A stretch of DNA of 64,000 nt from Candidatus Saccharimonadales bacterium (GCA_046350615.1 JAXMAA010000002.1:277204-341203); one strand, 5' to 3'; numbered from the stretch's first letter, positions 1 to 30,047 are shown. Numbers and translations: made by a program. Notes: generated from the sequence alone by a model not told the origin.

Positions 1-2
1 AA

Positions 3-200
3 GACTACCAGGCACGTAAACCAGATGCGCCTACGGAGATAAATAAGCAGCGAGCAAAAGAAATTATCCATATACCAAAACTTTCTTTCCACGATGCAGC
101 ATATGTGCTTAACACCATAAACAACCCTGACAGTAAGCTGAGATTTGAAATGACGAAAGAAGGAGGCCTGAATGTTCGCCTTACAGAAGTCGAAGACTAA
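3..200 (+). CDS. C-terminal end of an unidentified protein (5' part outside window), upstream member of the T4SS-like cluster
   Basis: Reading frame open from window edge to TAA 198-200 (...NTINNPDSKLRFEMTKEGGLNVRLTEVED*); overlaps the next ATG at 172 as in a coupled operon. No recognisable motif. Confidence 0.3.
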   Translation, partial: DYQARKPDAPTEINKQRAKEIIHIPKLSFHDAAYVLNTINNPDSKLRFEMTKEGGLNVRLTEVED

Positions 201-363
201 AAGTAACAGTAGACAACAAATAGCCATTAAAGGTGTTCGCGATGGGATTCTAATCCTGCCTGGCAACCAGTACCGAGCAGTGCTAGAGGTATCGAGCCTT
301 AACTTTGAGCTCAAAAGTGAAGAAGAACAGGACGCTATTATCGATACCTATGAAGCTTTTTAA
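172..363 (+). pseudogene. VirB4/TraE-like conjugation ATPase, fragment 1 of 4 (N-terminus)
   Basis: 63 aa ending ...SEEEQDAIIDTYEAF, then in-frame TAA (361-363) and TGA (391-393); the same frame resumes at 415. A T5 run (357-361) and G4 run (405-408) bracket the disrupted 50 nt. Confidence 0.6.
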
Positions 364-414
364 ACTCTGGTGGGCAGTAGTCTTCAAATCTGATCCGCAC
401 CCGCGGGGATAGAC

Positions 415-804
415 ATGGATAAATACCTTGAAGAGCTCAATGAACGCCTGCACGGCGAGACCGAAAAAGTATATAAGCAACAGCTCAAAAACTATGATGA
501 GTTTATCCGCTCACTCATTACGACCAATAAGATCTTAACCAGACACTTTTACCTGATCGTGCCGTACACTGCTACCAGTAAGACTGACTTTGAGTTGGTA
601 CAAGAACAGCTCAACCTAAAGCTGGATATTGTAGCTAAAGGCATGACCAGACTTGGCATGCACACCAAGGAGCTCAGTAGCCTTGAAGTACTCGATTTGT
701 TCTATAGCTTCTACAATCCGGTTCAAGCTAAGGTGCAGCCATTAACCGAACAAGCGTTGCGCCTCATACATACAGCGCTCGTAGAGAGAGGAGACGAAGT
801 ATGA
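415..804 (+). pseudogene. VirB4/TraE-like conjugation ATPase, fragment 2 of 4
   Basis: Same frame as fragment 1 (IDMDKYLEELNERL...); ends TGA 802-804 overlapping ATG 801 in another frame that is open from 732, so a -1 frame change or a split gene. Confidence 0.55.
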
Positions 805-1301
805 ACTCACCGCTTGCTACCTTAAAAGAACGTAAAATCGCCCGACAAGAAAAACAAAAAGAACTAAAGTTAAGTTTTGGCGAACAAGACGCCGTTGATG
901 TGCTCAGTTACGCCGGACTTGAAGAAAATACGGACTATCTCTGTATAGATGGCGTGTATATTCGTACTCTCTACATCTCTGGCTACCCATTTGTCGCTAA
1001 CTCCGGCTGGATGGACAGCCTGATTAACTTCAATCACGACACAGATATTAGTTACCATTTGCATGAAGTGAACGCCCTCCATGCACTGCCAAAACTTCAC
1101 CGCAAGATTACTGAACTTGAATCAACTAAACGAGCCATGATGCGTGCTGGCAAGATTGTTGGTAGTGAGATTACTGATCCACTTGAATCGGCGATTGAGC
1201 TACGAGATAAGATCCAGCGTGGCCAGGAAAAACTGTTCCAAATGTCGATCTATATCGCTATCCGTGCAGAGAGTCTAGAGGAGCTTAATAAAACGACATA
1301 G
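801..1301 (+). pseudogene. VirB4/TraE-like conjugation ATPase, fragment 3 of 4 (middle domain)
   Basis: IDGVYIRTLYISGYPFVANSGWMDSL... resembles the VirB4 middle domain; terminated by in-frame TAG 1299-1301, and the same frame continues into fragment 4. Confidence 0.6.
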
Positions 1302-1316
1302 CTCCTTGAAGCCACT

Positions 1317-2534
1317 ATGTCAGCCAGGTTGTTTTACTCCAAAGTTGCTCGTTACCAGCAACTTGAAGCATTGCAGTCTATCTTGCCACGCGGCGAAGAC
1401 CAGCTAGCGCAGAAACGAAACCTAGACAGCAGCTCAGCGGCGTTAACGTTCCCATTCATGAGCTCAGAACTCGTCCAAGAAACCGGCATTTTGTATGGCG
1501 TGAATAAGTCCAACAACTCACTGGTTATCTTAGATCGGTTTGGGCTGCATAACGCTAACTCCATTGTCTTTGCTCAGTCGGGCTCGGGTAAAAGCTACAC
1601 GACAAAAGTAGAAATCCTGCGCCAGCTCATGCAAGGTACTAAAGTGCTGGTCATCGATCCAGAACGAGAGTATAAGCGACTCAGTGAAACAGTTGGCGGC
1701 ACGTACATTAAGCTGTCTGCTAAGAGTAAAGAGAAGATTAACCCGTTTGATCTTGCCACAACCTTCCATACCAAGTCTGATCTAGCTGAGCACGTCCAAG
1801 ACCTAACGGCCGTAATTGACCTGATGGCTGAGGGTCTAGATAAACGCGAGAAGGCTGCCGTAGATAAAGCCATTCTTAAAGTCTACAAGCAGGCCAAGAA
1901 AGAACAGCCTTTGCTTGAAGACCTCTACGCCGAATTGCATAAGCTTGGTCAACTGCAGCTATGTGAGCGGCTCGAGAAGTATATTACGGGCTCAAGCTCG
2001 GAGATCTTTAACTCACACACCAACATAAAGTTAGAAAACCGCTTGGTGATATTCGACATCAAGGACATGCCGGCAAATCTACGACCGATCATGATGCTGA
2101 TCATCTCCAATTTCATTCAGAACCAAGTCAAAGCAAAGCCTGAGAAACGAATGCTCGTCATCGACGAAGGTTGGTTGCTGCTGCAACACGAACAAAGCGC
2201 CCGCTTCATTGCCGGCCTGGTTCGCAGGGCTCGAAAGTATTACCTAGGTGTATCGTTCATCTCGCAACAAGCCGATGACTTCCTCAAGAGTGACTACGGT
2301 CGCGCTATTGCCTCACAATCTGCGCTGCGTATTCTCATGCGCCAAGACACGACAACTATTAAGACAGTCGTCTCAGAATTTAACTTGTCCGAGTATGAGC
2401 AACAATTCTTACTGACCTGTGAACGTGGTGACGCACTCATCATTGCTGACCAAAACCATGTAGCCGTCAAGGTGGTAGCTAGCGATAAAGAGCACCCGCT
2501 CATCACGACCGATCCAACGGAGCTCTACGCATGA
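1317..2534 (+). pseudogene. VirB4/TraE-like conjugation ATPase, fragment 4 of 4 (complete ATPase domain)
   Basis: Walker A AQSGSGKSYTTK, Walker B RMLVIDEGW, conserved FISQQ...; 405 aa. The four fragments sum to about 763 aa, the size of a single VirB4. Confidence 0.8.
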
Positions 2535-3007
2535 ATCTAGGCCTGCTGACTTTTGGTGCCGTCACCGGCGGGAACCTCAAGAAGCAGGTCGCTATTGTCT
2601 TTGCCACGATGGTTATTGTAGTCGCACTACCATTTGCTGCCGTCTTTGCTATGGGCGAGAGTGTCGTGACCTTTCTGTCTGGTGTGCCAAGCTTAGAGGC
2701 TGCCGAGAACGAAGGTTTTTACATGGGTGGCCCCGTTGCAGGTGATACCTATGAGTGGGGCAACTGCACCTATTGGGCATTTGCGATGCGCCTGATGGCG
2801 GGCTATCCTATTCCGACAAGCTGGGGCAATGCTAACACCTGGGACGATAGAGCTCGCCGTGATGGCTATGTGGTAGATCACTCACCGGAAGTTGGAGCAG
2901 TATTTCAAAGTGATGCTGGACAGTGGGGTCATGTAGCATATGTGTCAAAAGTGAATAGCCAGAACGGTCAATGGAGAATCTCAGAGATGAACTTTAATTG
3001 GACTTAA
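2531..3007 (+). CDS. Membrane-anchored CHAP-domain peptidoglycan hydrolase (VirB1-analogue of Gram-positive T4SS); possible 3' frameshift
   Basis: N-terminal TM helix; CHAP catalytic Cys in WGNCTYWAF, His in WGHVAYV, then ISEMN. 4-nt overlap with upstream ATPase. Another frame continues 3003-3116 with a plausible CHAP C-terminus (LNIVSKRTFSPEAAGSYNFIH...). Confidence 0.75.
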   Translation: MNLGLLTFGAVTGGNLKKQVAIVFATMVIVVALPFAAVFAMGESVVTFLSGVPSLEAAENEGFYMGGPVAGDTYEWGNCTYWAFAMRLMAGYPIPTSWGNANTWDDRARRDGYVVDHSPEVGAVFQSDAGQWGHVAYVSKVNSQNGQWRISEMNFNWT

Positions 3008-3085
3008 TATTGTCAGTAAACGAACGTTTAGTCCTGAAGCAGCTGGGTCGTATAACTTCATTCATAACAAGATAGGAGCAAGTTT

Positions 3086-3454
3086 GTGGACACCACAGCC
3101 TATCTCACTACCATAATTGCATTACGCCGTGGCATTTCGCCATCCATATTGCTGATCTGCTTTATGGTGTACTGGCTGACGAAGCTAGTAGTAGCAACTG
3201 TTAATCGCCTGTACTTACATAAGAGGCAAATGGTATGGCTTGAACTAACGCCACCTGCTGGACTCGTCAAAACACCCGAGTCTACAGCCCAACTATTCTC
3301 GATAGTTCATGGGCTACGATCAGCCAGGTCACTTAAGGAACAGTTGTTAAATCGAACACCCGTTATGAGCCTAGAAATTGTTTCGACAAAACATGAGGGT
3401 ATCCGTTATTTGATACAGATTGAAGTCAGAATGCCAATACCCTGCAAAAGATAA
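3086..3454 (+). pseudogene. VirD4/TraG-like type IV coupling ATPase, fragment 1 of 3 (membrane N-terminus)
   Basis: GTG start after AGGAG; TM segment ISPSILLICFMVYWLTKLVVA; ends at TAA 3452-3454 in the same frame as fragment 2. The alternate frame 3424-3492 reads SQNANTLQKIIAAYLYPGKNKDN. Confidence 0.55.
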
Positions 3455-4330
3455 TTGCTGCATACCTATACCCGGGCAAAAACAAAGATAATTGAGCGCA
3501 CCTTGCACGCGCCTGATTTTGTGAGCGAGTTTACTCAGAATCATCACTTTGTATTGCCGCTGGCAACAAGTAAAGCGTTTGAGCAACATGATCCGCTGTC
3601 ATACATCACGGCCGCCATGACTAAACTTGAAAATGGCGAGAGTCTATCGATGCAACTGATTATCCAACCAATAAAGTCCAAAGAGGCAAGTAGGTTGTCG
3701 CGCAGGATTCTAGGCAATGAAGATATCTTGAAGCGAGTATCCCGTGGCAAGCTGTCGCCATTCAATAAGGCTGGAGAACTATTTGCTGGGGCAGTACTAG
3801 CAACCACCGAAACTATTGGAGATGTATATAACGGATCAACTGCCAGCTACTACCAAGGTAAATCTGCAAAAGATGCCACATTCCAATCCCAGGTGCAAAA
3901 ACGGCAACGACCTGCACGAACATTGAGTGCCTTTGAACTCGAGCTCATGGAGTCGATGCACCAAAAAGTCTCCCAGGCCTTATTTCAAGTTGACTTGCGG
4001 CTAATGGCAAGTAGCCCTAACGCTAAGGAACATCTCGCGACCCTCCGATCCGCGCTCGATGGCTATTCAGTCCCACAATACCAAGCATTAAGAGCCAAGA
4101 AGCGACTACCCGTTATTCAAAAGTATCGAACACATCTTGCGAGTTTGCGACTACCAAGCTTATTTACGAAACAGTCACTTATTCTTTCTGCCGGTGAGGT
4201 ATCGAGCCTATTTCATTTTCCGGCTAGTCATATTAGCAAAACCGACAACCTAGTGACGTCGCTCAGTAGAACGCTCCCAGCGCCAGTATCAGCTCAAGTC
4301 TGGCCAGCCGCTCTCTATTTTGATCGGTGA
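3455..4330 (+). pseudogene. VirD4/TraG-like type IV coupling ATPase, fragment 2 of 3
   Basis: Same frame as fragment 1; no motif of its own; overlaps fragment 3 by 11 nt in a different frame that is open from 4257. Confidence 0.5.
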
Positions 4331-5669
4331 GAATAATCACCATGATGTTACAACTCCGATTGGCCTAACTGAAGCTGAGCGGCAACGACATATGTATATT
4401 GTTGGTGGCACCGGTAATGGTAAGACGACCATGTTACTGTATGCAATCTTGCAAGATATTAAAAATGGTGAGGGCTTAGCCGTTATTGATCCGCACGGTG
4501 ATCTCGCTGAAGCAATCCTGCACCATGTTCCCAAAGATCGCATAGATGATGTTATTTATCTCAACCCAGACGATCTGACCTATCCAATCGGCGTGAATCT
4601 ACTGGAACTTACCCCAGGACTTAAGGGTGATGATCTGCTCAGAGAAAAAGACCTCATCACTGAATCGACTATCTCAGTACTACGAAAGATATTCTCGGAA
4701 GATGATTCAGGCGGCCACCGTATTGAGTACGTACTTAGAAACACCATCCAAACAGCACTAACACTGGATAATCCTAATTTGTTCACCATCTTCCGACTTC
4801 TCAACGATAACAAGTATCGTCGAGAGATAGTTAAAACACTTGATGATGAAGACTTACGTAATTTCTGGAAGAACGAGCTTGGTAAAGCCGGTGAGTTCCA
4901 AAAGGTTAAGATGGTTGCTGGTATTACCGCTAAGATTGGTCGGTTTCTGTTTTCTGGCTCCGCCAAACGAATCCTTGAACAAGACAAGTCCACCATAGAT
5001 TTTGGAGACATCTTGGATTCAGGCAAGATCCTGATTTGCAACTTCTCAAAAGGTGCACTCGGCGAAGATACCTCATCACTCTTCGGAACCACTATACTTG
5101 CAAAACTCCAGGTAGCTTCGTTGAGACGAGCCCGACTCAAACAGGCTGATCGTCTACCGTTCTATCTCTACGTTGATGAGTTTCAGAACTTTGCGACTAT
5201 GAGCTTTGTACAGATGCTCAGTGAAGCGCGAAAGTATAAGTTGTTCCTTATCATGGCCGAGCAGTCCACTAGCCAACAAGATCAACAGCGACTTGTAGAT
5301 ATTATTTTAGCTAACGTCGGTACCGTTATTTGTTTCCGCTCTGGTAGCCCGGCCGATGAGCGTTATGTACTACCATTATTTTATCCGTACATTGAGCAAG
5401 GTGAAATTTCCAACTTGCCAGCTTACAACTTCTATATGCGCATAGCAGCCGTCACTGCCCAGGAACCATTTTCTGGTCAGACATTGCTGCTTAATGAGGC
5501 AGATGATGAAACGGTATTCAAAGAAGCTATCCGTTCATCACGAGAGAAGTACGCCAAGAAAGTCGATAAGGAAAAGACTAAACCCGTTTTGACGACAAAA
5601 ACAAATGCGAGCACAAAAAAGCGCACAATAACTCGCAGCGCACGGGATCGGGACAAAAAACCAAGCTAG
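4320..5669 (+). pseudogene. VirD4/TraG-like type IV coupling ATPase, fragment 3 of 3 (NTPase domain)
   Basis: Walker A VGGTGNGKTT, Walker B FYLYVDEFQNF, AEQSTSQ; basic C-terminal tail. The three fragments total about 860 aa. Confidence 0.75.
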
Positions 5670-5824
5670 AGATAAGAAGCCAAATTAAACTTTAGCCGTC
5701 GTCCGTAATTAGGGCGTTGGGTATCCATAATCACAATGGCGTATAATAACAATGAGATACGAACAGCATAGATCTCTTGGGCCAGTCCGTCAGATTTAAC
5801 GAAATGTTTTGAAAGGATAGCTAT

Positions 5825-7072
5825 ATGTACACATACTTACTGTTTCAGCTAGTCGGAGTATTATTTACTGTGACAGCATTGCTATTTTTCGCTTATAAAC
5901 TAGGCTTTTTCAAATGGCTTATAGCCTGGATAAAGCGATTGCCGAAGCTTAGTTTAGTGCTGTTACTAATCGGACTTGGCTGCATTCTAATTGGCGGGCA
6001 AAAATATAGTCTGCACTTTGCGATGCCACCATACATCCATTCGATGACCCCAGACAACAAGCCGCCGACGTTACCTATTCCTAGTGCTGTCAGATTCTTA
6101 CTCGATTCTCGCCATTTCGAGCAAGTAAAAGATATTGGGGCCAACCCTGCTTCGGTGCCAGCACCCCTTAATAGATCGACCAGCGAAACGGTTAAAATGC
6201 ACTTAACTACCAAGGAGGTCATTAGTGAAGTTGCTCCTGGAATTTACAATAACTACTGGACATTCGACGGCCAGGTACCAGGGCCAATGCTCCGTGTTCG
6301 TGAGGGTGATACTGTTGAAACGAGCATCACAAATGATCCAAGCAGCCTACATGAGCATAATATAGATTTTCATGCCGCTACTGGGCCTGGTGGCGGTGCG
6401 ACCCTAAGCATGGTTAAACCTGGCGAGACCAAAACATTTACCTGGAAAGCATTGCAGCCGGGGTTATATATTTATCACTGTGCCACCTCTAATGTCAGCG
6501 TTCATAACTCCCACGGACAATACGGCATGATTCTTGTTGAGCCAAAAGAGGGTCTACCAAAAGTAGACAAGGAGTTCTATGTTGTGCAAGGAGAGTTGTA
6601 TACCCAGGGCGGTATTGGCAAGAAGGGCTTGGTGCTATTTGATCCACAGGCTTTACTCGACAACAATCCAACCTATGTAACTTTTAATGGCAAGATTAAT
6701 AGCTCACCAATCATAAAAGTAAAAAAAGGTGAAACGGTACGACTATACGTTGGGAATGGCGGCGTCAGCTTGGTCTCGTCATTCCATATCATTGGTGAGA
6801 TTTTTGATAAAGTCTACGTTGAAGGTGGCCTAGGTGACGGAGCGCTTACGAACAGAAACATTCAAACGACCGCCGTACTACCCGGTGGCTCGACAATAGT
6901 AGAGTTTAAAACAGATGTCCCCGGTAAGTACTTACTCGTTGATCACGCACTCTCTCGAATGAACAAAGGCGCCTGGGCAACCCTAGAAGTTGAAGGTGAC
7001 CCAAGTCCAGATATATTCCGATCCAACTCGCCCGAGGATCACTCCATGCCAGAACACAAATCTATGCATTAG
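5825..7072 (+). CDS. nirK: Copper-containing nitrite reductase (NirK-type two-domain multicopper oxidase) with N-terminal membrane anchor
   Basis: HEHNIDFHAATGPGGGA and YIYHCAT...HNSHGQYGMILVEP (type-1/type-2 Cu ligand pattern), second cupredoxin domain FHIIGEIFDKVY; two N-terminal TM helices; His/Met-rich tail EDHSMPEHKSMH. Confidence 0.8.
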   Translation: MYTYLLFQLVGVLFTVTALLFFAYKLGFFKWLIAWIKRLPKLSLVLLLIGLGCILIGGQKYSLHFAMPPYIHSMTPDNKPPTLPIPSAVRFLLDSRHFEQVKDIGANPASVPAPLNRSTSETVKMHLTTKEVISEVAPGIYNNYWTFDGQVPGPMLRVREGDTVETSITNDPSSLHEHNIDFHAATGPGGGATLSMVKPGETKTFTWKALQPGLYIYHCATSNVSVHNSHGQYGMILVEPKEGLPKVDKEFYVVQGELYTQGGIGKKGLVLFDPQALLDNNPTYVTFNGKINSSPIIKVKKGETVRLYVGNGGVSLVSSFHIIGEIFDKVYVEGGLGDGALTNRNIQTTAVLPGGSTIVEFKTDVPGKYLLVDHALSRMNKGAWATLEVEGDPSPDIFRSNSPEDHSMPEHKSMH

Positions 7073-8718
7073 AAATGCTTACGCAGGTGGGACATACTAT
7101 AGTCCCAGGTAGCATCAGTCTTCTTCTTTGGGTTAAAAATATTATCTGGATCAAAAATATGCTTTGTGTGCACAAAGTAGCCATAAACTTCTGGGCCATA
7201 CATCTTTTTAAGCCATGGCCCTCGACTTAGTCCGTCGTTATGTTCACCACTTAAGCTTCCGCCGTACTGCAACACCAATTCGTTTACTGCCTTCATGACT
7301 GGTTTAATTTTGGCCACTTCTTTGGGGTCTTCAATTTTCATGAGCGGGATAATGTGGAAGTTACCGTCGCCCATGTGACCGGCAATGGTGGCAAGCAGTT
7401 TATATTTTTTGAGAATCTTGCGGAGCTGGGGTAGAAACTTTGGCAATACCTCTGGCGGCACAACTAGGTCATCAATAAATGGAGCAGTGTGTTTGTCTTT
7501 TACTTTTTGGCGGAGCAAGTTGAAGCTCTCTCGTCGCATAATCCAAAACTTACGTGCCTTCTCTTCACTAGCATCTTCTTCGTAGGTTTCATAGCTGTCA
7601 AACGGCCGCAGATCAAGTCGCATAGCATGTACTTTCTCGGAAACTTCTTCAGGTGTATCACCGTTAAATTCAACCAAAAGTACCATCTTAGGAATGCCTC
7701 GAAATAGTTTGAAAAGATCGGGCAGTAGCTCCAGCCCAAGCTTGATTGTTCCGAGCCAGCCCAGAGTATGATGGAAATAATAAAACAGCTTGAAGCTGAG
7801 CATGAGCGTGTAATTATCGAAACCTTCAAACGTAGCCGGTTCATGTTCTCGGACTGTGTTAATTATTTTACCAAGCTGTCTAATATCACGGAGAAATACC
7901 ACCAAGGTTCCAGAATGCTTTGGTGCCGGCACAAGTCGCAGATGAACATCGGTCACAATACCGAGTGTTCCCTGAGAGCCAACAATGAGCTGAGTCATGT
8001 CGAAGATACCCGTCTCACGGTCCCAGACATTCCATAGATGGTAACCTGTAGAATCTTTGCTAACCTGTGGCTTGGCGGCTTTAATTGCATCGTAATGTTC
8101 TTCGAGTAGCTGGTAGACTTTTGTGTATAGCCGTCCTTCGTAATCTTTTTGTGCCATCTTAGCTTTAAGTTGAGCCTTATGCAGTGGCTTTACACTATAT
8201 TCATTGCCATCAGCTAGTATTACGGACAGGGCCGGTACAAACTGTTCGGTCTTGCCATACTGCAATGACTTCTCGCCACCAGAGTTATTAGCAACCATAC
8301 CCCCGAGCGTGCATAGATCTTTGCTGGCTGGATAGCATGGTAGCAGGGCATCTTGCTTGAGTGTTTCTTGCTCGAAATCACGGTAATACACTCCTGGTTG
8401 AACGCGGGCTGAACGCGGGGTAACGGAGTGGATTGTAGTGAAGTGCGGAGTCATATCAAGCACAATCGATTCACCGATTGCACCACCGCTCATATCGGTA
8501 CCAGCTGAACGAACTACAATTGAATGATCACCGTGCTTACCGCCAGCAACCAGGTTAACAACTCGTGAAACATCTGCCGAATCTTTTGGCGCAAGTACCA
8601 ACTGGGGCCGAAGTTCAAACATACTGGCATCATGGCTACAACGCTCCAATGACGCTTGGTCTGTAGAAATATCTCCCAAGAAACCGTCCATTTTGAGTGC
8701 TGTGATTATAGAATCCAT
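7069..8718 (-). CDS. FAD-linked oxidase / dehydrogenase (GlcD / D-lactate dehydrogenase-like, PCMH FAD-binding fold)
   Basis: 549 aa; VVRSAGTDMSGGAIGESIVLDM and GSQGTLGIVT are typical FAD_binding_4 motifs; C-terminal FAD-oxidase domain (HMGDGNFH). Confidence 0.75.
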   Translation of the reverse strand: MDSIITALKMDGFLGDISTDQASLERCSHDASMFELRPQLVLAPKDSADVSRVVNLVAGGKHGDHSIVVRSAGTDMSGGAIGESIVLDMTPHFTTIHSVTPRSARVQPGVYYRDFEQETLKQDALLPCYPASKDLCTLGGMVANNSGGEKSLQYGKTEQFVPALSVILADGNEYSVKPLHKAQLKAKMAQKDYEGRLYTKVYQLLEEHYDAIKAAKPQVSKDSTGYHLWNVWDRETGIFDMTQLIVGSQGTLGIVTDVHLRLVPAPKHSGTLVVFLRDIRQLGKIINTVREHEPATFEGFDNYTLMLSFKLFYYFHHTLGWLGTIKLGLELLPDLFKLFRGIPKMVLLVEFNGDTPEEVSEKVHAMRLDLRPFDSYETYEEDASEEKARKFWIMRRESFNLLRQKVKDKHTAPFIDDLVVPPEVLPKFLPQLRKILKKYKLLATIAGHMGDGNFHIIPLMKIEDPKEVAKIKPVMKAVNELVLQYGGSLSGEHNDGLSRGPWLKKMYGPEVYGYFVHTKHIFDPDNIFNPKKKTDATWDYSMSHLRKHF

Positions 8719-8804
8719 ATACCCTAAGCTTAGTTTGTTAGTAGCCCTTTTTGCAAGACCCCCATGTTGCTTATGTGGTAGTATGAAAATAGATTGGATG
8801 CAAG

Positions 8805-9998
8805 ATGAGTAAACATGAAGTTGTGATTATTGGCGGGGGCTTTGCAGGTGTTAAGGCAGCGCTAGAGTTAGTTGATGATCCGAAAGTTAAAGTAACGCTA
8901 GTCAGCGAACGTCCAGACTTTCGCTATTACCCGACACTCTACCGGACAGCTACCGGTGGACGCAAAATGATTTCAAGTATCCCACTCGTAACTATTTTCG
9001 CTGGTAAATCAATCACTATCCTGCAAGACAGCGTTACTACAATTAACCGCCAAGAGAAGACTATAGCTACTAAAGCTGGGCGGGCAGTAAAATACGACAG
9101 TTTACTGCTCTGTCTTGGGGTGCAAACAAACTACTTTAATATCCCTGGGTTACAAAAGTATTCGTACGGTATTAAAACCATTGAAGATGCCGAGGAGCTA
9201 AAAAACCATCTACACCAACAGTTAATTCAACAATGGCGTCCAGATACCAACTACATCGTTATCGGAGCTGGCCCTACTGGGGTGGAGCTAGCCGGAGCGC
9301 TACAAGCCTATGTGGTGAAGCTTCTGCGTGACCATGGTATCTCAAAACGAAGCGTACACATTGAGCTTGTCGACACTGCTCCTCGTATTCTCCCGCGTAT
9401 GCCAAAGGCTGTATCTCGCCGGGTCGCGAGACGACTTCGAAAGCTCGATATACGAATTCTCACAAACCGCCATGTTGATACACTAGACGAAACGACGCTC
9501 ACTGTTGATGACAGACCCATTCGCAGCCAGACTGTTATCTGGACTGCGGGAGTCACTAACAATTCTTTCTTTAAAACAAACAAATTCCAATTAACTGCAG
9601 GTGGTAAAGTACGAGTTGACCAATATTTACAGGCCGAACCTAGTGTCTACGTGGCCGGAGATAACGCTGATACTCCGTATAGTGGCATGGCTCAAACCGC
9701 ACTTTATGACGGTAAATTTATTGCTAGCAACATTACACGACTAGCACATAGTCAAGATGCTCGATCGTATGTCGCCAAGCGACCGATCTATGTTACGCCA
9801 GTAGGTCGACATTTTGCTGCCGTACAATGGGGTGGACTAAGAATATACGGGGTGGCTGGCTGGGGACTTCGGAAATTAGCAGATTACGTTGCCTATCACG
9901 ATTACCTGCCCTGGCGATTGGCAGCTACACTTTGGCTGGCCGAAAACGACGAGGAGAACACCTGCTCACAGTGTTTAGAGCGCGGCGAGAGCTCGTAG
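8805..9998 (+). CDS. ndh: Type II NADH dehydrogenase (NDH-2) family FAD-dependent oxidoreductase, island copy
   Basis: Two dinucleotide-binding motifs VVIIGGGFAGV and IVIGAGPTGVELAG; GDNADTPYSGMAQTA. Paralogue of 38366-39547. Confidence 0.75.
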   Translation: MSKHEVVIIGGGFAGVKAALELVDDPKVKVTLVSERPDFRYYPTLYRTATGGRKMISSIPLVTIFAGKSITILQDSVTTINRQEKTIATKAGRAVKYDSLLLCLGVQTNYFNIPGLQKYSYGIKTIEDAEELKNHLHQQLIQQWRPDTNYIVIGAGPTGVELAGALQAYVVKLLRDHGISKRSVHIELVDTAPRILPRMPKAVSRRVARRLRKLDIRILTNRHVDTLDETTLTVDDRPIRSQTVIWTAGVTNNSFFKTNKFQLTAGGKVRVDQYLQAEPSVYVAGDNADTPYSGMAQTALYDGKFIASNITRLAHSQDARSYVAKRPIYVTPVGRHFAAVQWGGLRIYGVAGWGLRKLADYVAYHDYLPWRLAATLWLAENDEENTCSQCLERGESS

Positions 9999-10068
9999 CC
10001 TCGCTAAGTGTCGATGGTCAAAATAGCCGCGAGTTTGTCCTATGGCAAGAACGTTGTAAGATGGTCGT

Positions 10069-10512
10069 ATGATTAAAAAAGCTACACATTGGTTCTCGAA
10101 AAACATCATCTTTATCACCTGGCTCATAAGCATCGGCGCTGTTTTTGGTAGCATGGGACTGAGCGAGGTCATGCACCTCATACCATGTGCACTTTGTTGG
10201 TACCAACGAATTTTGATGTTCCCACTTGCGTTCATACTGGGTGTTGGCGTGTATAAAAAAGACAATAACGCTGCATATTACGTACTGCCTCTCAGCATGC
10301 TGGGTATAGTTGTGTCCTTTTACCACTCACTACTTCAATGGGGAATAATTAAAGAAGTTGTGCAGACTTGCTCAATCGATAGCTCGTGCGCCGTTCCGCA
10401 AATTAACTGGTTTGGGTTTATAACTATTCCGTTCATGGCATTCATTATGTTCGTACTCATCACAGGCCTTATGTTGGCTCAAGCGCATATCAATAAGAAG
10501 CTACTCAAGTAA
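10069..10512 (+). CDS. Disulfide bond formation protein, DsbB/BdbC family
   Basis: 147 aa, four TM segments, first periplasmic loop PCALCWYQR (CxxC), second Cys pair in QTCSIDSSC. Confidence 0.7.
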   Translation: MIKKATHWFSKNIIFITWLISIGAVFGSMGLSEVMHLIPCALCWYQRILMFPLAFILGVGVYKKDNNAAYYVLPLSMLGIVVSFYHSLLQWGIIKEVVQTCSIDSSCAVPQINWFGFITIPFMAFIMFVLITGLMLAQAHINKKLLK

Positions 10513-10701
10513 CATTATTCTCCAAGGGGGAGAGGATGTTCAATTGTATATACTTCCTTCCTCTGTCTTCTCATTGTACGGGTGAACCAAAAGCATCAAG
10601 GTAGTACTTTCAGTCTCCACCTTGACACTTTTGGTTGCAGCCCGAATCTCCTTTGCCAGAGAGGCAGAAAGTCCTCTCATGAATTAACAAAGGAGGGTTT
10701 C

Positions 10702-11016
10702 ATGGAAACTCAAGCGCAAGACATAGCAAAATTAAATGATAGGTTCCGAGGGATGTGTTTAGATGTGTTCTATACACCAGGCGTACGTGATGGGATTATG
10801 GATCTTATTGGCCTATCTCAAGCAGTTGAGAATTTCAATAGCTTTAATGAGGATAATGATCCGCATGGAGAACATGATTTTGGATCACTGCGTTTTGAAG
10901 GTAAGAAGATCTTCTGGAAGATTGATTACTATGACCAGGATTTAAAGTTCTGGTGCGATCCACTTGATAGCGCCTGTCGTAGAACGCTAACTATTATGCT
11001 CGCAGACGAGTATTAG
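10702..11016 (+). CDS. DUF3768-family protein (typical of plasmids/ICEs)
   Basis: ATG 10702 preceded by AAGGAGGG; FNSFNEDNDPHGEHDFGSLRFEGKKIFWKIDYYD matches the DUF3768 core as I remember it. The 10582 start in the track has no RBS and a non-conserved extension. Confidence 0.6.
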   Translation: METQAQDIAKLNDRFRGMCLDVFYTPGVRDGIMDLIGLSQAVENFNSFNEDNDPHGEHDFGSLRFEGKKIFWKIDYYDQDLKFWCDPLDSACRRTLTIMLADEY

Positions 11017-11075
11017 TTAGTTGTCCTGAGCATGACGAAAAACTGCTCAAACGCATAACTTGTAACTTAGAGCCT

Positions 11076-11396
11076 CTAGGGCATTACCGCATCTAGTTCT
11101 TCACCGGCGAAGCTTATGATTTCTCCGAAACTCTCATTCTTAGCAAACTTTTGCCATCGTTGAGCACGTTCTGATGTTCCATTGTGTGTGTCCTCACTCA
11201 TAGCATCTCGGGCTTCTTGAGATTCCCACTCTGCAACAGCAAAGTAGCAACCAGGCTCATTGCGCACTTTATGAATATGCGTCCCGGCAGCGCCAGGATA
11301 TTCTTGGAGCACAGTGCTGCTTTCGCGCCAATGATCTATAAACGCCTGTTCATCTTCTGGATTATTGAGTTTTATTTTCCATATATATCGATACAT
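11076..11396 (-). CDS. Antibiotic-biosynthesis-monooxygenase (ABM) domain protein
   Basis: 106 aa ferredoxin-like fold pattern: FIDHWRESSTVLQEYPGAAGTHIHK...YFAVAEWESQEARDAM. Confidence 0.6.
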   Translation of the reverse strand: MYRYIWKIKLNNPEDEQAFIDHWRESSTVLQEYPGAAGTHIHKVRNEPGCYFAVAEWESQEARDAMSEDTHNGTSERAQRWQKFAKNESFGEIISFAGEELDAVMP

Positions 11397-11407
11397 GAGC
11401 TTACCTC

Positions 11408-11950
11408 TTAATAAAAAGTTACTGGTTTGTTGTTACTATCTACTGTCCGAACTAGCACTTCTGCATATTCTAAGTCGAAACCTGGGAATTCGGGATGCTC
11501 TTTCGGTAGTGTTGGTTTCATTTCGGCTAAGACCTTATCTGCTTCCTCGTGTGTCATTTGGTCGATAGGTTTCTCGATAACCTCATATAAATACTTGCCA
11601 TCTTCGAGCTTACTATAGGCAATCTTGATGGCATATGCCTGTTGCTTGTACCAGTTACTTTTTTCTATGTCGGCAAGGATACCTTTGATATTGTTGAGCA
11701 AATGAGTTGCAACACGCAATTCGGCAGCATCCCAATCTTCATCATCACTACCACCAGCATCTAATTCACCATCATTACGCTGAAACTCTAAGTCAGTAAT
11801 ATCTCCTATAAGCATCTGGGTGTTGAGTTTAAGATCATCAAAGTCAGGTGTTTTAATTGCTGCAAGTTCATCAATTGCCTCAACAGCACCTTTGCTCCTG
11901 GCGATGATATCCTTAACTTCGTGGATGTAGGCTTGCTCTTTTTTATTCAT
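11408..11950 (-). CDS. Hypothetical acidic protein
   Basis: 180-aa ORF tightly packed between neighbours (gaps of 4 and 11 nt); acidic stretch GGSDDEDWD; no motif recognised. Confidence 0.45.
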   Translation of the reverse strand: MNKKEQAYIHEVKDIIARSKGAVEAIDELAAIKTPDFDDLKLNTQMLIGDITDLEFQRNDGELDAGGSDDEDWDAAELRVATHLLNNIKGILADIEKSNWYKQQAYAIKIAYSKLEDGKYLYEVIEKPIDQMTHEEADKVLAEMKPTLPKEHPEFPGFDLEYAEVLVRTVDSNNKPVTFY

Positions 11951-11954
11951 GATA

Positions 11955-12737
11955 TTATCTTATCAATTCCAACGCAGAAGAACCATTGCTTAGAACATTG
12001 TCCAAGCCTATGGCATGCACAACTACGTCATCTATACCCGTCGATTCAAAGACAGACTGTGCGTATTCAAGAAAGGTCTTGGCTTGTCGGTCGCTTGCCA
12101 ACACAAACAATAGTGCTGGGTAATCGCCGTCTGGCCAGCCTTCATCGTCACAGTGCTCAAGAAGCTTATTAAATCGTTTTCGGACTAAGAATGGTTGGCT
12201 ATCATGGTGAAGTTCAACAAAAAACTCGTTGGGTTTAGTGCCGCTTGTTTCTTGGCGGCGTAAGTAGAGATGTGGGCGTGGTAGTGGAAAGTCTGTGTCA
12301 CCAGCTATTTCAGTGGCACTGTAGATATAGAACTCGTCGGGGTAGGCTTGCTTAATGTGGTTGGCTAACTGAAACGTAGTCAGGCAGTGCTGGATAAAAC
12401 TTTCGGTTTTGGCGTTGTACATGGCATGCAGTGCTTTTTTGGATAGGTCAGTGTTTTTGAGTAAGTAGGTGATCCCTTTGGGAGCAATGGTGTACCTAGC
12501 GCCCTTACGGTCTATGCGGTATGAGTTATCGTATTGCTTAGTTAAGTACTTTGACTCAACAAGGTTTTGTAGCATTCGGTTTAAGCTGTTTTTATTAACC
12601 CCACGATATTCTGCCAATAATGACGAAGTTACAAAGCGAAATTTATATACAATCTTTAAAGTATGGAGCTGTTTACTGCTTAACTTTTCCAAAACCTGCT
12701 TCTCTTTCATAGACCGTCCGCACTTTCTTCTTCTCAT
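11955..12737 (-). CDS. Replication-relaxation family (wHTH) protein
   Basis: N-terminal winged-helix pattern LSSKQLHTLKIVYKFRFVTSSLLAEY...LNRMLQNLVESKYLTK resembles PF13814. Start may be the second ATG (12710). Confidence 0.5.
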   Translation of the reverse strand: MRRRKCGRSMKEKQVLEKLSSKQLHTLKIVYKFRFVTSSLLAEYRGVNKNSLNRMLQNLVESKYLTKQYDNSYRIDRKGARYTIAPKGITYLLKNTDLSKKALHAMYNAKTESFIQHCLTTFQLANHIKQAYPDEFYIYSATEIAGDTDFPLPRPHLYLRRQETSGTKPNEFFVELHHDSQPFLVRKRFNKLLEHCDDEGWPDGDYPALLFVLASDRQAKTFLEYAQSVFESTGIDDVVVHAIGLDNVLSNGSSALELIR

Positions 12738-12856
12738 CTATATATACTATATATAAGAGGATGAGTAAATAAGTCTGATTCTTATCTGTTAATAGTCTAT
12801 TAATAAGGCGTTATGCACGACGCTTTTTACTGTGGATAAAATCATACATAAAGCAC

Positions 12857-12886
12857 TTGCAACTATCCGTGCTCGGATAGTATACT
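12857..12886 (+). promoter_or_regulatory. Candidate promoter with palindromic operator for the small-ORF/recombinase unit
   Basis: TTGCAA (12857-12862), 18 nt, TATACT (12881-12886); the spacer is the perfect palindrome ACTATCCG-TGCT-CGGATAGT (12862-12881). Confidence 0.35.
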
Positions 12887-12907
12887 AGTAGTGTAAGGAT
12901 AACTATT

Positions 12908-13084
12908 ATGTCCAAAGAGGGTATGGTTCAGACACTTCCTAAAGAAACGATTGAGGCACTACGCCTGATCTTGGAACGTGAGCAGTCCAGGCATATCGAA
13001 GATGCCGAGGTGATCGAGATCGGTGAGTCGCTCCTGACCTTTTATGAACTCCTCGGACAACAAAGTGAGCCAAGCGATGAGTAG
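12908..13084 (+). CDS. Small acidic helical protein (58 aa) translationally coupled to the serine recombinase
   Basis: ATG 12908 with AAGGA 8 nt upstream; its stop TAG (13082-13084) overlaps the recombinase ATG (13077) in the sequence ATGAGTAG. Below the 60-aa cut-off of the ORF track. Confidence 0.4.
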   Translation: MSKEGMVQTLPKETIEALRLILEREQSRHIEDAEVIEIGESLLTFYELLGQQSEPSDE

Positions 13085-14567
13085 CGACAATAAAGCCGTT
13101 ATCATAGCCCGGGTGTCGAGTAAGCGCCAAGAGGATGAAGGCTATTCGCTTCCTGCTCAAAAGCGACTACTCAACAGCTATGCCGTCGATAAGGGCTTAA
13201 ATCCACTTAAGAGTTTTGAGATAGCCGAGTCGGCTTCTAAAACTGAGCAACGCCGTATCTTTAAAGAGGCCATGAAGTTTATTGAAGATAACAACGTGAA
13301 GCATTTAATCGTAGAGAAGGTTGATCGACACGTTCGCAACTTACATGACGCAGTTGAAACCAACGATTGGTTAATGGCAGATGAGGCCAAGCGAGTTCAC
13401 TTTGTAAAAGATTCGCTGGTGATGCATAAAAACTCTCGTTCGCAAGAATGGCTCAACTGGGGCATCCGAGTCGTTATGGCCAAAAACTATATCGATAACC
13501 TACGCGAAGAAGCCATGAAAGGCTGGGCTGAAAAACTAGCCCAAGGGTGGCTCCCTGGTGTTCCGCCTCCAGGCTATATGACCGTTACCGAAAATGGTAA
13601 GCGCATTCATAAACCCAATCCTGATACCGCACGGCTTATGAAACGAGTGTTTGATCTGTATCTTGAGCCAAGTCAGTCGATAGCTTCAGTGGCTCAGGAA
13701 ATGGCAAAGATGGGCATCCGCACCCGTAAAGGCCATCCATACTACAAAAGTCAGGTGCAGCGCATTCTTACCAATCCATTTTACATCGGGATTAACCGCC
13801 ATAACGGCAAAGACTACCCAGGCGTACAAGAAACGTTTATCTCTAAGGATGTATTCGATAAGGTGCAAAAGAAGATGCGACGCAAGACGCCAACTAGATA
13901 CCGCAAACATAATCCGGTATTTAAAAACCTTATTCACTGCACGGGATGTGGTGGGCTGGTGACGTGGCAACTCCAAAAAGGTCGCTACTATGGCTCATGC
14001 CAGCGCAAGAGTGATGAGTGTCGTGGTCGCAAGCTCCTCAGAGAGGATACCATCGAAGAAGAAGTAGCACGTATGCTTCAGAACCTCGTAAGCCCATCTC
14101 CCGAAGTTATTGAATGGGTGGCTGAAGCTATGCGCACCAAGCACCACGACACTATTGAGGATAATTCTAAGCTCATAGCGTCTATTGAGGCGCAGTTAGG
14201 TCGCATTAAGCGTATGGATAGTAATCTCTACGACGATAAGCTGGCAGGAGATATAAGCGAGGAACGATACACTCAGAAGCACCAGGAGCTTAACCAGACT
14301 CGTCTTGAGCTTGAAGAGAAGCTTGGCAGCGTTGATAAAACCCTATCTGTGATACTAGACAAGAAACTGGTGCTGCTCGAGCTATCCCAAAAGGCCTCAG
14401 AAATCTATGCCCACAAGACACCAGAGCAGAAACGCACGATAATAACCAAACTTTTCAGGAAACTAGAGTATACCGAAGGTTCCGTATCTGTTATGTACAC
14501 GAATTTTAGCCGAGCAATCGCTCAAAATGTAACATTAACCCGTACTTTATTAGGAGGTACAAAATGA
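13077..14567 (+). CDS. Large serine recombinase (resolvase/invertase N-domain + recombinase domain + zinc ribbon + coiled coil)
   Basis: AVIIARVSSKRQEDEGYSLPAQ (catalytic Ser motif), recombinase domain, CTGCGG...C zinc ribbon, long C-terminal coiled coil. Start placed at 13077 (MSSDNKAVII); the track start 13044 is also possible. Confidence 0.85.
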   Translation: MSSDNKAVIIARVSSKRQEDEGYSLPAQKRLLNSYAVDKGLNPLKSFEIAESASKTEQRRIFKEAMKFIEDNNVKHLIVEKVDRHVRNLHDAVETNDWLMADEAKRVHFVKDSLVMHKNSRSQEWLNWGIRVVMAKNYIDNLREEAMKGWAEKLAQGWLPGVPPPGYMTVTENGKRIHKPNPDTARLMKRVFDLYLEPSQSIASVAQEMAKMGIRTRKGHPYYKSQVQRILTNPFYIGINRHNGKDYPGVQETFISKDVFDKVQKKMRRKTPTRYRKHNPVFKNLIHCTGCGGLVTWQLQKGRYYGSCQRKSDECRGRKLLREDTIEEEVARMLQNLVSPSPEVIEWVAEAMRTKHHDTIEDNSKLIASIEAQLGRIKRMDSNLYDDKLAGDISEERYTQKHQELNQTRLELEEKLGSVDKTLSVILDKKLVLLELSQKASEIYAHKTPEQKRTIITKLFRKLEYTEGSVSVMYTNFSRAIAQNVTLTRTLLGGTK

Positions 14568-14647
14568 AGAATCAAACTAATAAAAAATCACCCAGCAACA
14601 GAGGTGAAATAAAAGAAAAGGAGTTAGAAATGTCGTTGCGTTCTATA

Positions 14648-14721
14648 TGGCTGGGGATGAGGGATTCGAACCCCCGATCCTGGGACCAGAACCCAGTGCC
14701 TTACCGCTTGGCCAATCCCCA
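14648..14721 (-). tRNA. tRNA-Gln (anticodon CTG), CCA encoded
   Basis: Reverse complement TGGGGATTGGCCAAGCGGTAAGGCACTGGGTTCTGGTCCCAGGATCGGGGGTTCGAATCCCTCATCCCCAGCCA. It has a 7-bp acceptor stem, a GTTCGAATC T-loop and anticodon loop TTCTGGT, and is close to E. coli tRNA-Gln. Confidence 0.9.
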
Positions 14722-14889: not shown

Positions 14890-14945
14890 GGCGGTGGAGT
14901 TTGGGGATAGTATCTGCTATACTTATAAATACATTAACAACGTAA

Positions 14946-15065
14946 CAATATAAAGAGTGTGGCGAGAGATCTAGCTCGTTGACCCACCGGCAACCTACGA
15001 TTATTTAGGGTTTTCCTTGGATATCGAAAGGTGCTCCAACTAGCCGCGTGAGCGGAAAGATATTG
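14946..15065 (+). promoter_or_regulatory. S-box / SAM-I-like riboswitch aptamer
   Basis: P1 CAATAT/ATATTG (14946-51 / 15060-65); AAGAG; GTGG...CCAC P2; conserved GGCAACC and AAGGTGC blocks; P4 CCGC-GTGA-GCGG. Downstream gene is a Cys/Met-metabolism PLP enzyme. Confidence 0.65.
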
Positions 15066-15072
15066 TGATTTT

Positions 15073-15106: not shown

Positions 15107-15442
15107 ATGTCAAACTTTAATACCTGTGAGCATGATCATCAAGATGTAGGTGGCTTTTTAGACGCGGTTGCCGAGGAGGGTGCGGCGCTTCAAATTGCAG
15201 CGGCGCTCGGTTCTGCTGAGCCAGTGCGACTGCAGCGGCGACCGACAATTATCGATTTCGCGCTAGGCAGTATACCATCGCCGCTTAGTCCAGAAACACC
15301 AGAGGGCAACCTTCATCAAACTGCGAAAACATGCGCCCGGGCGATCATCGCCGGCGAATGCACGCAGTATGCTCTTGAGCCGACCGAAAGTCTGGTACAG
15401 TTCACTATTCATAGGCGCCATGAGACCAAGGGTGGGTGCTAG
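15107..15442 (+). CDS. Hypothetical 111-aa protein, first gene under the SAM riboswitch
   Basis: ATG directly after the terminator T-run with embedded SD; MSNFNTCEHDHQDVGG...; no motif recognised. The track start 15065 (GTG) would lie inside the aptamer. Confidence 0.45.
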   Translation: MSNFNTCEHDHQDVGGFLDAVAEEGAALQIAAALGSAEPVRLQRRPTIIDFALGSIPSPLSPETPEGNLHQTAKTCARAIIAGECTQYALEPTESLVQFTIHRRHETKGGC

Positions 15443-15449
15443 GAGGCTT

Positions 15450-16599: not shown

Positions 16600-17163
16600 T
16601 TATAGCAATCGAAGATCTTCCAGCCCTTCGGGTAAAAAGCCTTGGGGATGTTTAAAGTTGGTCTCCCATTTGGTTCCTTTTGCGTAGCCAAGATCCTTCA
16701 TCAATTTAGTCGGCGCATTTCTTAGATGGAGTGGTACTTGTGCATCGGGAAAATCCTTTGCGGCTTGCAAAGCGGCGTACATGGCATCTGCCACTTCTCG
16801 AGATTTCTTGCTTTTGGCGAGTGCTACGGCACAATGGAACAGGCTATACTGCCCTTCAGGCAGGCCAATTCGTTCTATCGCTTGAAAAGCGGCAGTTGCG
16901 AGTGCTAGTGCGCCATTGCCGGCTAGGCCAATATCTTCTGAGGCAAAAATGACCATTCGCCGTGCTATAAACTTTGGGTCTTCGCCAGCATCAATCATCC
17001 GCGCCAAGTAATACAGTGTGGCGCTCACATCGGAACCGCGCATACTTTTAATAAAGGCTGAGATGAGATTGTAGTGATATTCGCCGCCTTTGTCATAACC
17101 GAGCAAGCGTTTTTGGGCCGCGGTTTTAACGGTTTCGGGCGTAACTTTTTCAGCAAGCTGCAA
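16600..17163 (-). pseudogene. rarA: Replication-associated recombination protein RarA/MgsA, C-terminal fragment (MgsA_C domain)
   Basis: GGEYHYNLISAFIKSMRGSDVSATLYYLARMIDAGEDPKFIARRMVIFASEDIGLA is the conserved RarA C-domain; out of frame with the N-terminal part. Confidence 0.8.
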
Positions 17164-17771: not shown

Positions 17772-17813
17772 AGTTCTATTGTAACCCGACCACGAAAAAT
17801 CTATACTAGGGCC

Positions 17814-29870: not shown

Positions 29871-30047
29871 CTTTAGTGACGGCGAAGTGAAGTAAGAGCG
29901 GTTGTCTGAAGTGGTCTTCTCTATATCATAGCGAAGATGGTGTATATAAATACAATCTCATCTCGTTAATATGTCATAGGTGATATGTAATAGTAATTGA
30001 CATATATTTCGCTATATATCAATAAAAGCTTGTTTTGTTGATATATA

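Follow-up and report, generated by a model that had tools for sequence, protein, structure and literature searches.

The window analysed here is a 64,000 nt stretch of DNA from a Candidatus Saccharimonadales bacterium (GCA_046350615.1, JAXMAA010000002.1:277204-341203), and the subject of the analysis is its first 14,721 nt, which end at a tRNA-Gln gene. This region is probably the right-hand part (~14.7 kb) of an integrated integrative and conjugative element (ICE) that belongs to a Saccharibacteria-specific family, and the interruptions seen in several of its transfer genes are most likely errors of the consensus sequence. An earlier interpretation made from the sequence alone (the sequence-only reading) had proposed an ICE-like island with broken transfer ATPases, and every gene that it named was found where it had been placed. 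Gene families were sought with Pfam, NCBIfam and PHROG profiles, and tRNA genes with ARAGORN and Rfam. Comparison loci and contigs fetched in the analysis are designated by L and a number. The features of the region, numbered from the first nucleotide of the window, are listed below.

3..200, + strand: PrgI/VirB3-like type IV secretion system (T4SS) gene, 3' end (last 65 codons); tblastn with the 169 aa L012 protein, 88% identity over residues 105-169
172..804, + strand: TraC-like (TrsD-type) T4SS gene, 210 aa in relatives, which match PF26593; interrupted in this assembly
801..2534, + strand: VirB4-family ATPase, 577 aa in relatives (PF19044, PF12846, PF01935); split in this assembly
2531..3116, + strand: CHAP-domain cell-wall hydrolase, 194 aa in relatives (PF05257); frame-shifted in this assembly
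3086..5669, + strand: type IV coupling protein (T4CP), with a DUF8128 N-terminal part and a VirD4/TraG-type ATPase, 850-863 aa in relatives (PF10412, PF12696 and PF02534 on the C-terminal piece)
5825..7072, + strand: cargo, copper-containing nitrite reductase NirK with an N-terminal membrane segment (TIGR02376, 320.3 bits, cut-off 296.3)
7069..8718, - strand: cargo, FAD-linked oxidase/dehydrogenase, GlcD / D-2-hydroxy-acid dehydrogenase-like (PF01565, PF02913)
8805..9998, + strand: cargo, NDH-2-like FAD-dependent pyridine-nucleotide oxidoreductase (PF07992)
10069..10512, + strand: cargo, DsbB/BdbC-type disulfide oxidoreductase (PF02600; NF002849, 124.9, cut-off 124)
10702..11016, + strand: DUF3768 protein, 104 aa, conserved first gene of the right-hand module (PF12599; 90% identical to the L001 protein)
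11076..11396, - strand: ABM-family monooxygenase-like protein, accessory (PF03992)
11408..11950, - strand: hypothetical acidic protein, 180 aa, accessory (no family match)
11955..12737, - strand: winged helix-turn-helix (wHTH) and Replic_Relax protein, candidate MOB_C-type (PD-(D/E)XK) relaxase (PF13814, 27.6 bits, cut-off 25.3)
12738..12907, no strand: divergent control region, highly conserved (near-invariant across five elements)
12908..13084, + strand: small conserved open reading frame (ORF) of 58 aa that overlaps the start of the recombinase gene; relatives encode 61 aa, and identity to the L001 protein (61 aa) is 81%
13044..14567, + strand: large serine recombinase, 507 aa, intact (PF00239, PF07508, PF13408)
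14568..14647, no strand: right end of the element, 80 nt, conserved between elements in alignments, abutting the tRNA 3' end
14648..14721, - strand: tRNA-Gln(CTG), the host attachment site, 3' end facing the element (ARAGORN, Rfam)

The mating-pair formation (MPF) genes present in the window are those for VirB4, the TraC/TrsD-like protein and the CHAP protein together with the 3' end of PrgI, and the pilin and TrbL are supplied from relatives only. The remainder of the PrgI/VirB3-like gene, TrbL/VirB6 and the VirB2-like pilin lie to the left of the window. The full order was read in L001, L012 and L116, and in relatives the pilin, TrbL/VirB6 and PrgI genes (~2.3 kb) are upstream of the point where the window starts, in agreement with the sequence-only reading, which had placed the left part of the element outside the window. 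VirB4 includes the Walker A motif AQSGSGKS and the Walker B motif MLVIDEGW, and more than 100 homologues (556-589 aa) are 91-99% identical. The Walker A motif of the T4CP is GGTGNGKT. NirK scores above the TIGR02376 equivalog cut-off, an assignment made by profile score and not by individual copper ligands, and the exact NirK protein was found in five independent contigs. For the FAD-linked oxidase (7069..8718), the NCBIfam matches are under the equivalog cut-offs. The 180 aa protein (11408..11950) has no match in Pfam, NCBIfam or PHROG, and the small ORF (12908..13084) also has no family match.

The site-specific recombinase at the end of the element is uninterrupted. It contains PF00239 (residues 18-168), PF07508 (residues 193-280) and the Zn-ribbon domain PF13408 (residues 293-345), and the catalytic motif is RVSS, read as ARVSSKRQ from the translation. 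It is 99% identical to the L022 recombinase at the protein level and 91% at the DNA level, with no gaps. The distance of 80 bp to the 3' end of tRNA-Gln(CTG), given in the sequence-only reading, was borne out by measurement (stop at 14567, tRNA at 14648-14721), and this tRNA gene is the only one in the whole window. Nothing points to a phage origin, as the recombinase has no relatives in IMG/VR and there were no informative PHROG matches.

A scan of one genome per species yielded 79 loci, almost all labelled Saccharibacteria, and about 100 loci were fetched altogether. Nearly all of the full-length loci include a seven-gene cassette in the order pilin, TrbL, PrgI, TraC-like, VirB4, CHAP and T4CP, in which VirB4 is conserved at 94-99% protein identity with DNA identities of 75-85%. 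We refer to two groups of loci as class A and class B. In class A, which includes most loci, the cassette is followed by a PLDc_2 nuclease gene and there is no recombinase module. Class B includes the window and 13 other loci (L001, L002, L003, L005, L022, L023, L028, L033, L077, L088, L104, L105 and L116), in which the cassette is followed by variable cargo, then by DUF3768, Replic_Relax and the small ORF, which are read as a module for maintenance and processing, and then by the serine recombinase; DUF3768 is missing in a few of them, e.g. L003 and L028. The slot between the T4CP and DUF3768 genes ranges from 368 to 5033 bp and its contents differ between relatives, where it can hold an MFS transporter, an EamA transporter with an aldo-keto reductase, or a HATPase protein. 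L116 is an intact sibling of the element in the window, with the same NirK, FAD oxidase, NDH-2 and DsbB cargo and 88% DNA identity over window positions 73-11049.

In every class B locus with that end visible, the recombinase is followed by tRNA-Gln (TTG or CTG). The junction is complete in L001, L002, L003, L028, L104 and L105 and cut by the contig end in L022, L023 and L077. Over 11,023 bp, reaching from the pilin gene, at which contig L002 begins, to the tRNA, L002 matches L001 (from the complete genome CP064998.1) at 99.68% identity, and the flanks beyond are unrelated. Identity ends at the 5' end of the tRNA, and 8 of the 35 mismatches are inside the 75 nt tRNA; counted from its 3' end, they begin at the 10th nt. 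This pattern places the junction of host and element at or just beyond the 3' end of the tRNA, within about 10 nt, and the crossover would presumably occur there. To the right, the copies are flanked by VanY genes, by enolase or by a gene for a 645 aa protein and, in the window, by a pyridoxal phosphate (PLP)-dependent enzyme preceded by an S-adenosylmethionine (SAM) riboswitch.

Occupied and empty versions of one site were also found. L100 (empty) and L105 (occupied) are 97% identical in the flank from BipA to enolase. In the empty site (L100-L101), enolase and tRNA-Gln(CTG) are followed by ordinary genes, and in L003, L104 and L105 this site holds the recombinase, Replic_Relax, T4CP, CHAP, VirB4 and TraC-like genes (at least 9.7 kb). 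The window has the same tRNA-Gln / MgsA / BipA neighbourhood. Between the host of the window and the L105 host, protein identities are 78% for BipA, 67-73% for MgsA, 94% for VirB4 and 88.5% for the recombinase. The empty site next to tRNA-Gln that was anticipated in the sequence-only reading is therefore available from a sister host (L100-L101), but none was found for the host species of the window in the collections searched, in which the best matches to the PLP flank gene were 33-35% in JGI metagenomes and 52% in the protein collection. The ICE-type island ending at the 3' end of tRNA-Gln is nonetheless upheld by the same layout in 13 other loci, by near-identical copies between unrelated flanks and by the empty site.

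Occupied and empty sites define only the right end of the element. No direct repeat of the tRNA-Gln 3' segment, suggested in the sequence-only reading as a possible trace of integration, was found in the window or in L001-L010; as this is expected for a serine recombinase, it is uninformative on the left end. The 3' ends of tRNA genes are more typical targets of tyrosine integrases than of serine recombinases. To the left of the pilin gene, an MmeI-type restriction-modification (RM) system and a PLD-helicase are found in L001 (1-6883), a C5-methylase, NgoFVII endonuclease, Z1 protein, Shedu-like protein and DUF2779 in L022 (181-6854), and a reverse-transcriptase-like ORF in L116 (2-475). This region is a variable defence hotspot, which may be either cargo or host DNA.

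Class A, despite the absence of a recombinase, also looks to have been mobile recently, judging from L011, L012 and L013, in which the cassette and PLDc_2 nuclease gene are 100% identical over 6.3 kb and are followed by three different right flanks. Some genomes have two copies, as with L048 and L093, which are on one contig. A few loci are degraded. In L104 (about 3187-3399, compared with L003 8601-8706), a copy that is otherwise 99.8% identical has a 106 bp deletion in the recombinase gene with TraC-like, VirB4, CHAP and T4CP intact. This is possibly a genuine immobilisation, recorded in a short-read contig with 5.5x coverage. In L096 (10001-13687), the cassette is decayed, with the T4CP in five pieces and only the C-terminus of VirB4. 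L087 (9333-11011) has a truncated VirB4 abutting a fragment of another serine recombinase, and L090 (3223-4494) has an internal VirB4 deletion.

Relative to full-length relatives, four genes of the window are interrupted, namely TraC-like, VirB4, CHAP and T4CP, by between eight and about a dozen small indels and one nonsense codon, all clustered within 4.1 kb. The TraC-like gene has four 1 nt indels within 52 nt (355, -1; 368, +1; 391, -1; 406-408, +1), which shift the frame in two short segments and introduce in-frame stop codons, TAA at 361 and TGA at 391. In VirB4, there is an in-frame TAG at 1299-1301 where all six relatives inspected have AAG. The CHAP gene has one surplus A at 2997, and its tblastn match falls in two frames. 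The T4CP gene has scrambled patches at 3116-3143 and 3424-3475, the latter with a TAA at 3452, and a surplus A at 4291 that causes a +1 shift. The sequence-only reading had described broken transfer ATPases, and VirB4 and the T4CP are indeed interrupted in the deposited sequence, but these breaks are most likely consensus errors, as set out below; the broken TraC-like and CHAP genes were found in addition to the two ATPases.

An alternative genetic code or programmed recoding was considered and rejected, as each of the three kinds of stop codon is found in frame, and all but one of the four stops fall in short out-of-frame patches bounded by indels. No shared sequence motif, such as a methylation motif, was evident at the lesion sites by inspection of the alignments. 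Outside the island (~49 kb), the only split gene found was rarA/MgsA (16600-17834, - strand), with a -1 frameshift near 17190, in GGDA|..ALSNLE, which is probably a consensus error of the same kind as the island breaks. The other adjacent same-frame ORF pairs in the window proved to be distinct genes.

Amino acid decay was assessed by counting private substitutions in alignments of 40-67 homologues, at columns with a conservation of 90% or more. The numbers found in the window were 0 of 86 for TraC-like, 0 of 403 for VirB4, 0 of 69 for CHAP and 1 of 321 for the T4CP. Summed over the four broken genes, this is a single private substitution among 879 conserved columns, a count that does not exceed that of typical intact members, and comparison of VirB4 with 119 database proteins likewise revealed no excess of amino acid change. 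This argues against genuine breaks, as neutral decay that collects about a dozen indels should also leave many missense changes. In addition, several of the indels are length-compensating pairs 14-40 nt apart with intervening patches that still hold stop codons, which rules out selection as the source of the pattern.

The seven truncated products (63, 129, 166, 405, 158, 291 and 449 aa) are present in only one record, the NCBI Candidatus Saccharimonadales metagenome-assembled genome (MAG; MFO0971391-97), in which the annotation treats the fragments as separate proteins, and no second occurrence was found among about 15 billion proteins. The exact NirK, NDH-2, DsbB, ABM and 180 aa proteins are also encoded in Logan or ENA assemblies. 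A short-read contig (L106, SRR30350716) is 100.000% identical to the cargo (window 4802-9940, 5.1 kb), shorter stretches of L109 and L110 are 100% identical to the cargo, and L107 is 99.92% identical. From the same dataset as L106, L111 covers window positions 2318-4808 at 99.36% identity, with an intact CHAP gene of 194 aa and a T4CP frame that stays open (526 codons in the gene call). It differs from the window by nine gap positions and seven mismatches, and the gaps are exactly at 2997, 3116-3143, 3424, 3465-66, 3475 and 4291.

Further contigs agree with L111. L112 (SRR28385526) matches it along the entire stretch, with a single open T4CP frame across all of the sites, and L114 (ERZ724549) agrees at the CHAP frameshift and at the 3116-3143 patch. 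The surplus A at 2997 is missing from contigs L111-L114, and an intact 194 aa protein (P0305) matches the window translation on either side of the CHAP frameshift. L115 (ERZ724528) is 98.9% identical and has an intact 210 aa TraC-like gene, with gap differences from the window at 355, 368, 391 and 406-408. Overall, L111, L112, L114 and L115 are 98.9-99.4% identical to the cassette with intact genes and differ almost only at the lesion sites; L113 is 96.5% identical, also with intact genes. Hence, short-read assemblies of several separate samples concur against the MAG sequence. Five short-read contigs with identical cargo all end on the left between window positions 4779 and 5421, and one ends on the right at 10581. 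These ends are the points at which the sequence becomes common to other cassettes, and every lesion (355-4291) is in the shared part. Reads from co-occurring variants of the cassette, or unpolished repeats, have presumably corrupted the MAG consensus.

The breaks are best read as consensus errors because they are private to one MAG, are mostly indels, are unaccompanied by amino acid decay and are absent from near-identical independent contigs, and for the same reasons the immobilised element with retained cargo proposed in the sequence-only reading is not sustained. In the comparisons made, the interruptions of TraC-like, CHAP and T4CP most likely arose as errors of this MAG assembly, the VirB4 TAG is probably an error too, and the element itself is probably intact. 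A degenerate ICE would show genuine disabling lesions together with relaxed selection, and this is not what was found; the VirB4 TAG is the one lesion that lies beyond comparison.

The wHTH and Replic_Relax protein encoded at 11955..12737 is a plausible MOB_C-type relaxase. PF13814 corresponds to MobC in CONJscan (PMC5357655) and has been assigned a PD-(D/E)XK fold (PMC3424549), and the order of secondary structure elements predicted for the candidate (alpha, three betas, alpha, beta) is compatible, at low confidence, with the PD-(D/E)XK core. In the adjacent control region (12738-12907), the palindrome CTATCCGTGCTCGGATAG (about 12863-12880) is embedded in a promoter with the -35 box TTGCAA and the -10 box TATACT, and the region is possibly an operator and/or an origin of transfer (oriT). 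The small ORF (12908..13084) may encode a directionality or regulatory factor. In the proposed cycle, the recombinase would excise the element as a circle, the candidate relaxase would nick the circle, possibly in the conserved region 12738-12907, the coupling protein would pass the DNA to the T4SS, and the recombinase would re-insert the element at tRNA-Gln of the recipient.

Several points weigh against an intact ICE with this mode of transfer. The Replic_Relax protein exceeds the PF13814 cut-off (25.3) only marginally, with 27.6 bits, PH stands in place of the PD motif in the clade of the window, while PD is kept in more distant class B members, and tblastn found no plasmid homologue of the relaxase candidate. 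A single-sequence AlphaFold model of the candidate (pLDDT 40.6) was too poor to test the fold. The left end is beyond the window and is not definable in relatives, in which similarity extends leftwards as far as the operon promoter, ~85 bp ahead of the pilin gene, with variable defence genes beyond it. Homologous recombination of a larger donor segment may explain how L105 acquired its copy. Every contig fetched is at most 87% identical at the VirB4 TAG (1299), which could be a real nonsense mutation, and for all of the breaks the reading as consensus errors was reached by comparison of assemblies and is not a read-level demonstration.

If the breaks were real, the element would be a recently inactivated, immobilised ICE that retains its cargo and recombinase. 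The lesions do stand in the deposited sequence, with the fragments annotated by NCBI as separate proteins, decayed cassettes exist elsewhere (L096, L087 and L090, and the recombinase deletion in L104), and there is no near-identical contig for comparison at the VirB4 TAG (1299). However, a single private change in 879 conserved columns, and lesions that are mostly indels, several in length-compensating pairs with stops that selection cannot explain, make real breaks unlikely. They are also hard to reconcile with the adjoining cargo, for which one dataset provides a contig of 100.000% identity over 5.1 kb alongside a cassette contig free of the lesions, with the agreement of short-read assemblies from several separate samples against the MAG, or with truncated products seen nowhere else.

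Two other explanations accept the cassette as functional and differ in what is mobile. The T4SS cassette could be a resident chromosomal 'lifestyle' system, beside which only the DUF3768 / Replic_Relax / recombinase module, a small integrative mobilisable element in this view, is mobile and landed by chance at tRNA-Gln. This would be in keeping with the view of Patescibacteria T4SSs as chromosomal, mostly relaxase-less and probably co-opted (PMC12102498), with the finding that one such system is essential for epibiotic growth (PMC10633639), with the extreme conservation of VirB4 and with the cassette being found without the recombinase module in most loci (class A). Nevertheless, we consider it quite unlikely, as no locus has the cassette next to tRNA-Gln without the module, and the empty site (L100) has neither the module nor a cassette within 9 kb. 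Moreover, L001 and L002 are 99.7% identical over the whole block from pilin to recombinase with unrelated right flanks, class A cassettes that are 100% identical over 6.3 kb have three different right flanks, and some genomes have two copies (L048, L093). The type of T4CP co-varies with the presence of the recombinase module, and a coupling protein, missing from the essential Southlakia system, is present in this cassette without exception. Alternatively, the island could spread mainly by natural transformation and homologous recombination, with the T4SS serving another use, e.g. delivery of protein or DNA to the host bacterium. Saccharibacteria are naturally competent (PMC10633639), and in the 97% identical flank shared by L100 and L105 (L100 11275-11651; L105 7159-7448) the tRNA-Gln genes are only ~84% identical, with compensatory acceptor-stem changes, and the 200-300 bp upstream are unrelated, and the tRNA region was apparently replaced along with the island. 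We give this explanation a similarly low probability. Elements are at tRNA-Gln amid wholly different flanks (VanY, enolase, PLP enzyme, 645 aa protein) and at both Gln isoacceptors, which requires site-specific integration, and the recombinase, T4CP and relaxase candidate are under purifying selection (recombinase 99% identical in protein at 91% DNA identity).

Composition sets the region apart from the rest of the window only in part. The tetranucleotide distance of the island is mildly raised (0.179 compared with 0.145 +/- 0.014 for the rest), and GC skew is flat in the island and steadily positive elsewhere, but the GC content does not distinguish them (0.452 and 0.457, respectively). Of the two deviations to be checked according to the sequence-only reading, the tetranucleotide one is thus mildly present and the GC one absent. 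Outside the island, the highest tetranucleotide distance is in a defence or mobile block (30042-37055, + strand) that includes Fic/DOC, a type III RM methylase (N6_N4_Mtase), a RhuM-family protein and a Res-type helicase-endonuclease. Ordinary host DNA starts directly to the right of tRNA-Gln with the SAM riboswitch (14945-15066, + strand; RF00162, 48.3 bits, gathering score 44.4), which is upstream of a gene for PLP-dependent Cys/Met metabolism (15369-16577). Five tandem 33 nt repeats (17859-18056, + strand) inside an ORF at 17694-18314 encode LRKEIKESGNQ units in a 206 aa protein. An IS200-like Y1 transposase gene (48534-48971, + strand; PF01797, E = 7.5e-32) directly follows a same-frame 207 aa ORF. 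A second NDH-2-like paralogue (38396-39493, - strand) is 34% identical to the island copy, and the host therefore already has an NDH-2-like enzyme outside the island.

The element resembles Firmicutes-type ICEs (MPF_FATA, serine recombinases; PMC4701971) in that the genes for VirB4, a VirD4-type coupling protein and a CHAP/VirB1-like hydrolase form an operon on one strand, one end is occupied by a large serine recombinase, cargo is placed between the transfer and recombination modules, and integration is site-specific. It differs in its host phylum, Patescibacteria, in its very compact size (about 11.3 kb without cargo in L001), in having a relaxase candidate that is Replic_Relax/MOB_C-like and not MOB_T or MOB_P, in its target, the 3' end of a tRNA gene, and in the VirB2-like pilin of this family, a component not known from Gram-positive systems. 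Examples of such Firmicutes-type serine-recombinase ICEs are Tn5397/CTn-type and streptococcal ICEs. Known MOB_C relaxases (pAD1 TraX / CloDF13 MobC, with a restriction-endonuclease fold) share with the candidate a wHTH N-terminus followed by the Replic_Relax domain, but differ from it in the features noted above, namely its marginal Pfam score, PH in place of PD and the lack of a plasmid homologue by tblastn.

According to Quinonero-Coronel et al. (2025, PMC12102498), the T4SS clade of Patescibacteria descends from the conjugation systems of monoderms. Its members are usually without relaxases (109 were detected, including 58 of the MOB_C type, with few close to virB4), are mostly not regarded as conjugative and are probably co-opted for other purposes (PMC12102498). 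In Southlakia epibionticum, a T4SS that has neither a recognisable coupling protein nor a relaxase is essential (Wang et al. 2023, PMC10633639). The family described here shares with these systems VirB4, the TrsD-like protein, PrgI/VirB3, VirB6, a VirB2-like pilin, a peptidase downstream of virB4 and the class Saccharimonadia. Unlike them as published, it always has an adjacent T4CP, and class B adds the MOB_C-like gene and the serine recombinase, in insertion-polymorphic copies. The link to the epibiotic lifestyle drawn in the sequence-only reading is thus only loosely relevant, as the Southlakia T4SS lacks a coupling protein and relaxase and this cassette has a T4CP, with an open frame in L111 and L112, and a relaxase candidate. 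A full-text search of one literature library found no description of Saccharibacteria ICEs at tRNA-Gln that use a serine recombinase.

Because the T4CP is always present and is combined with a MOB_C-like gene, a serine recombinase and insertion polymorphism, class B looks like a bona fide ICE lineage. We tentatively propose, with a confidence that falls a little short of even, that a piliated Patescibacteria-type T4SS with a T4CP drives very compact (about 11 kb without cargo), probably self-transmissible ICEs that insert at tRNA-Gln, use a MOB_C-like relaxase and carry defence and redox cargo among ultra-small epibionts. The apparent loss of T4SS function, striking as it would be in a group with an essential T4SS among its members, is not upheld, and we recommend a comparison with reads before any interpretation of such "pseudogenes" when they occur in the conserved mobile modules of other MAGs. 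As identical copies of the cargo block are present in several public datasets (SRR30350716, ERR15976506, ERR14790701, ERR14790703, SRR28385526 and SRR28385528), excision and transfer could be addressed directly in reads. If true, the proposal would contradict the view of Patescibacteria T4SSs as essentially non-conjugative chromosomal systems and would provide a natural vector for genetic work on Saccharibacteria. The findings suggest that at least one widespread Saccharibacteria T4SS lineage is still in conjugative elements, moving metabolic genes (nitrite reductase, flavin/NAD(P)H-type oxidoreductases) and defence genes.

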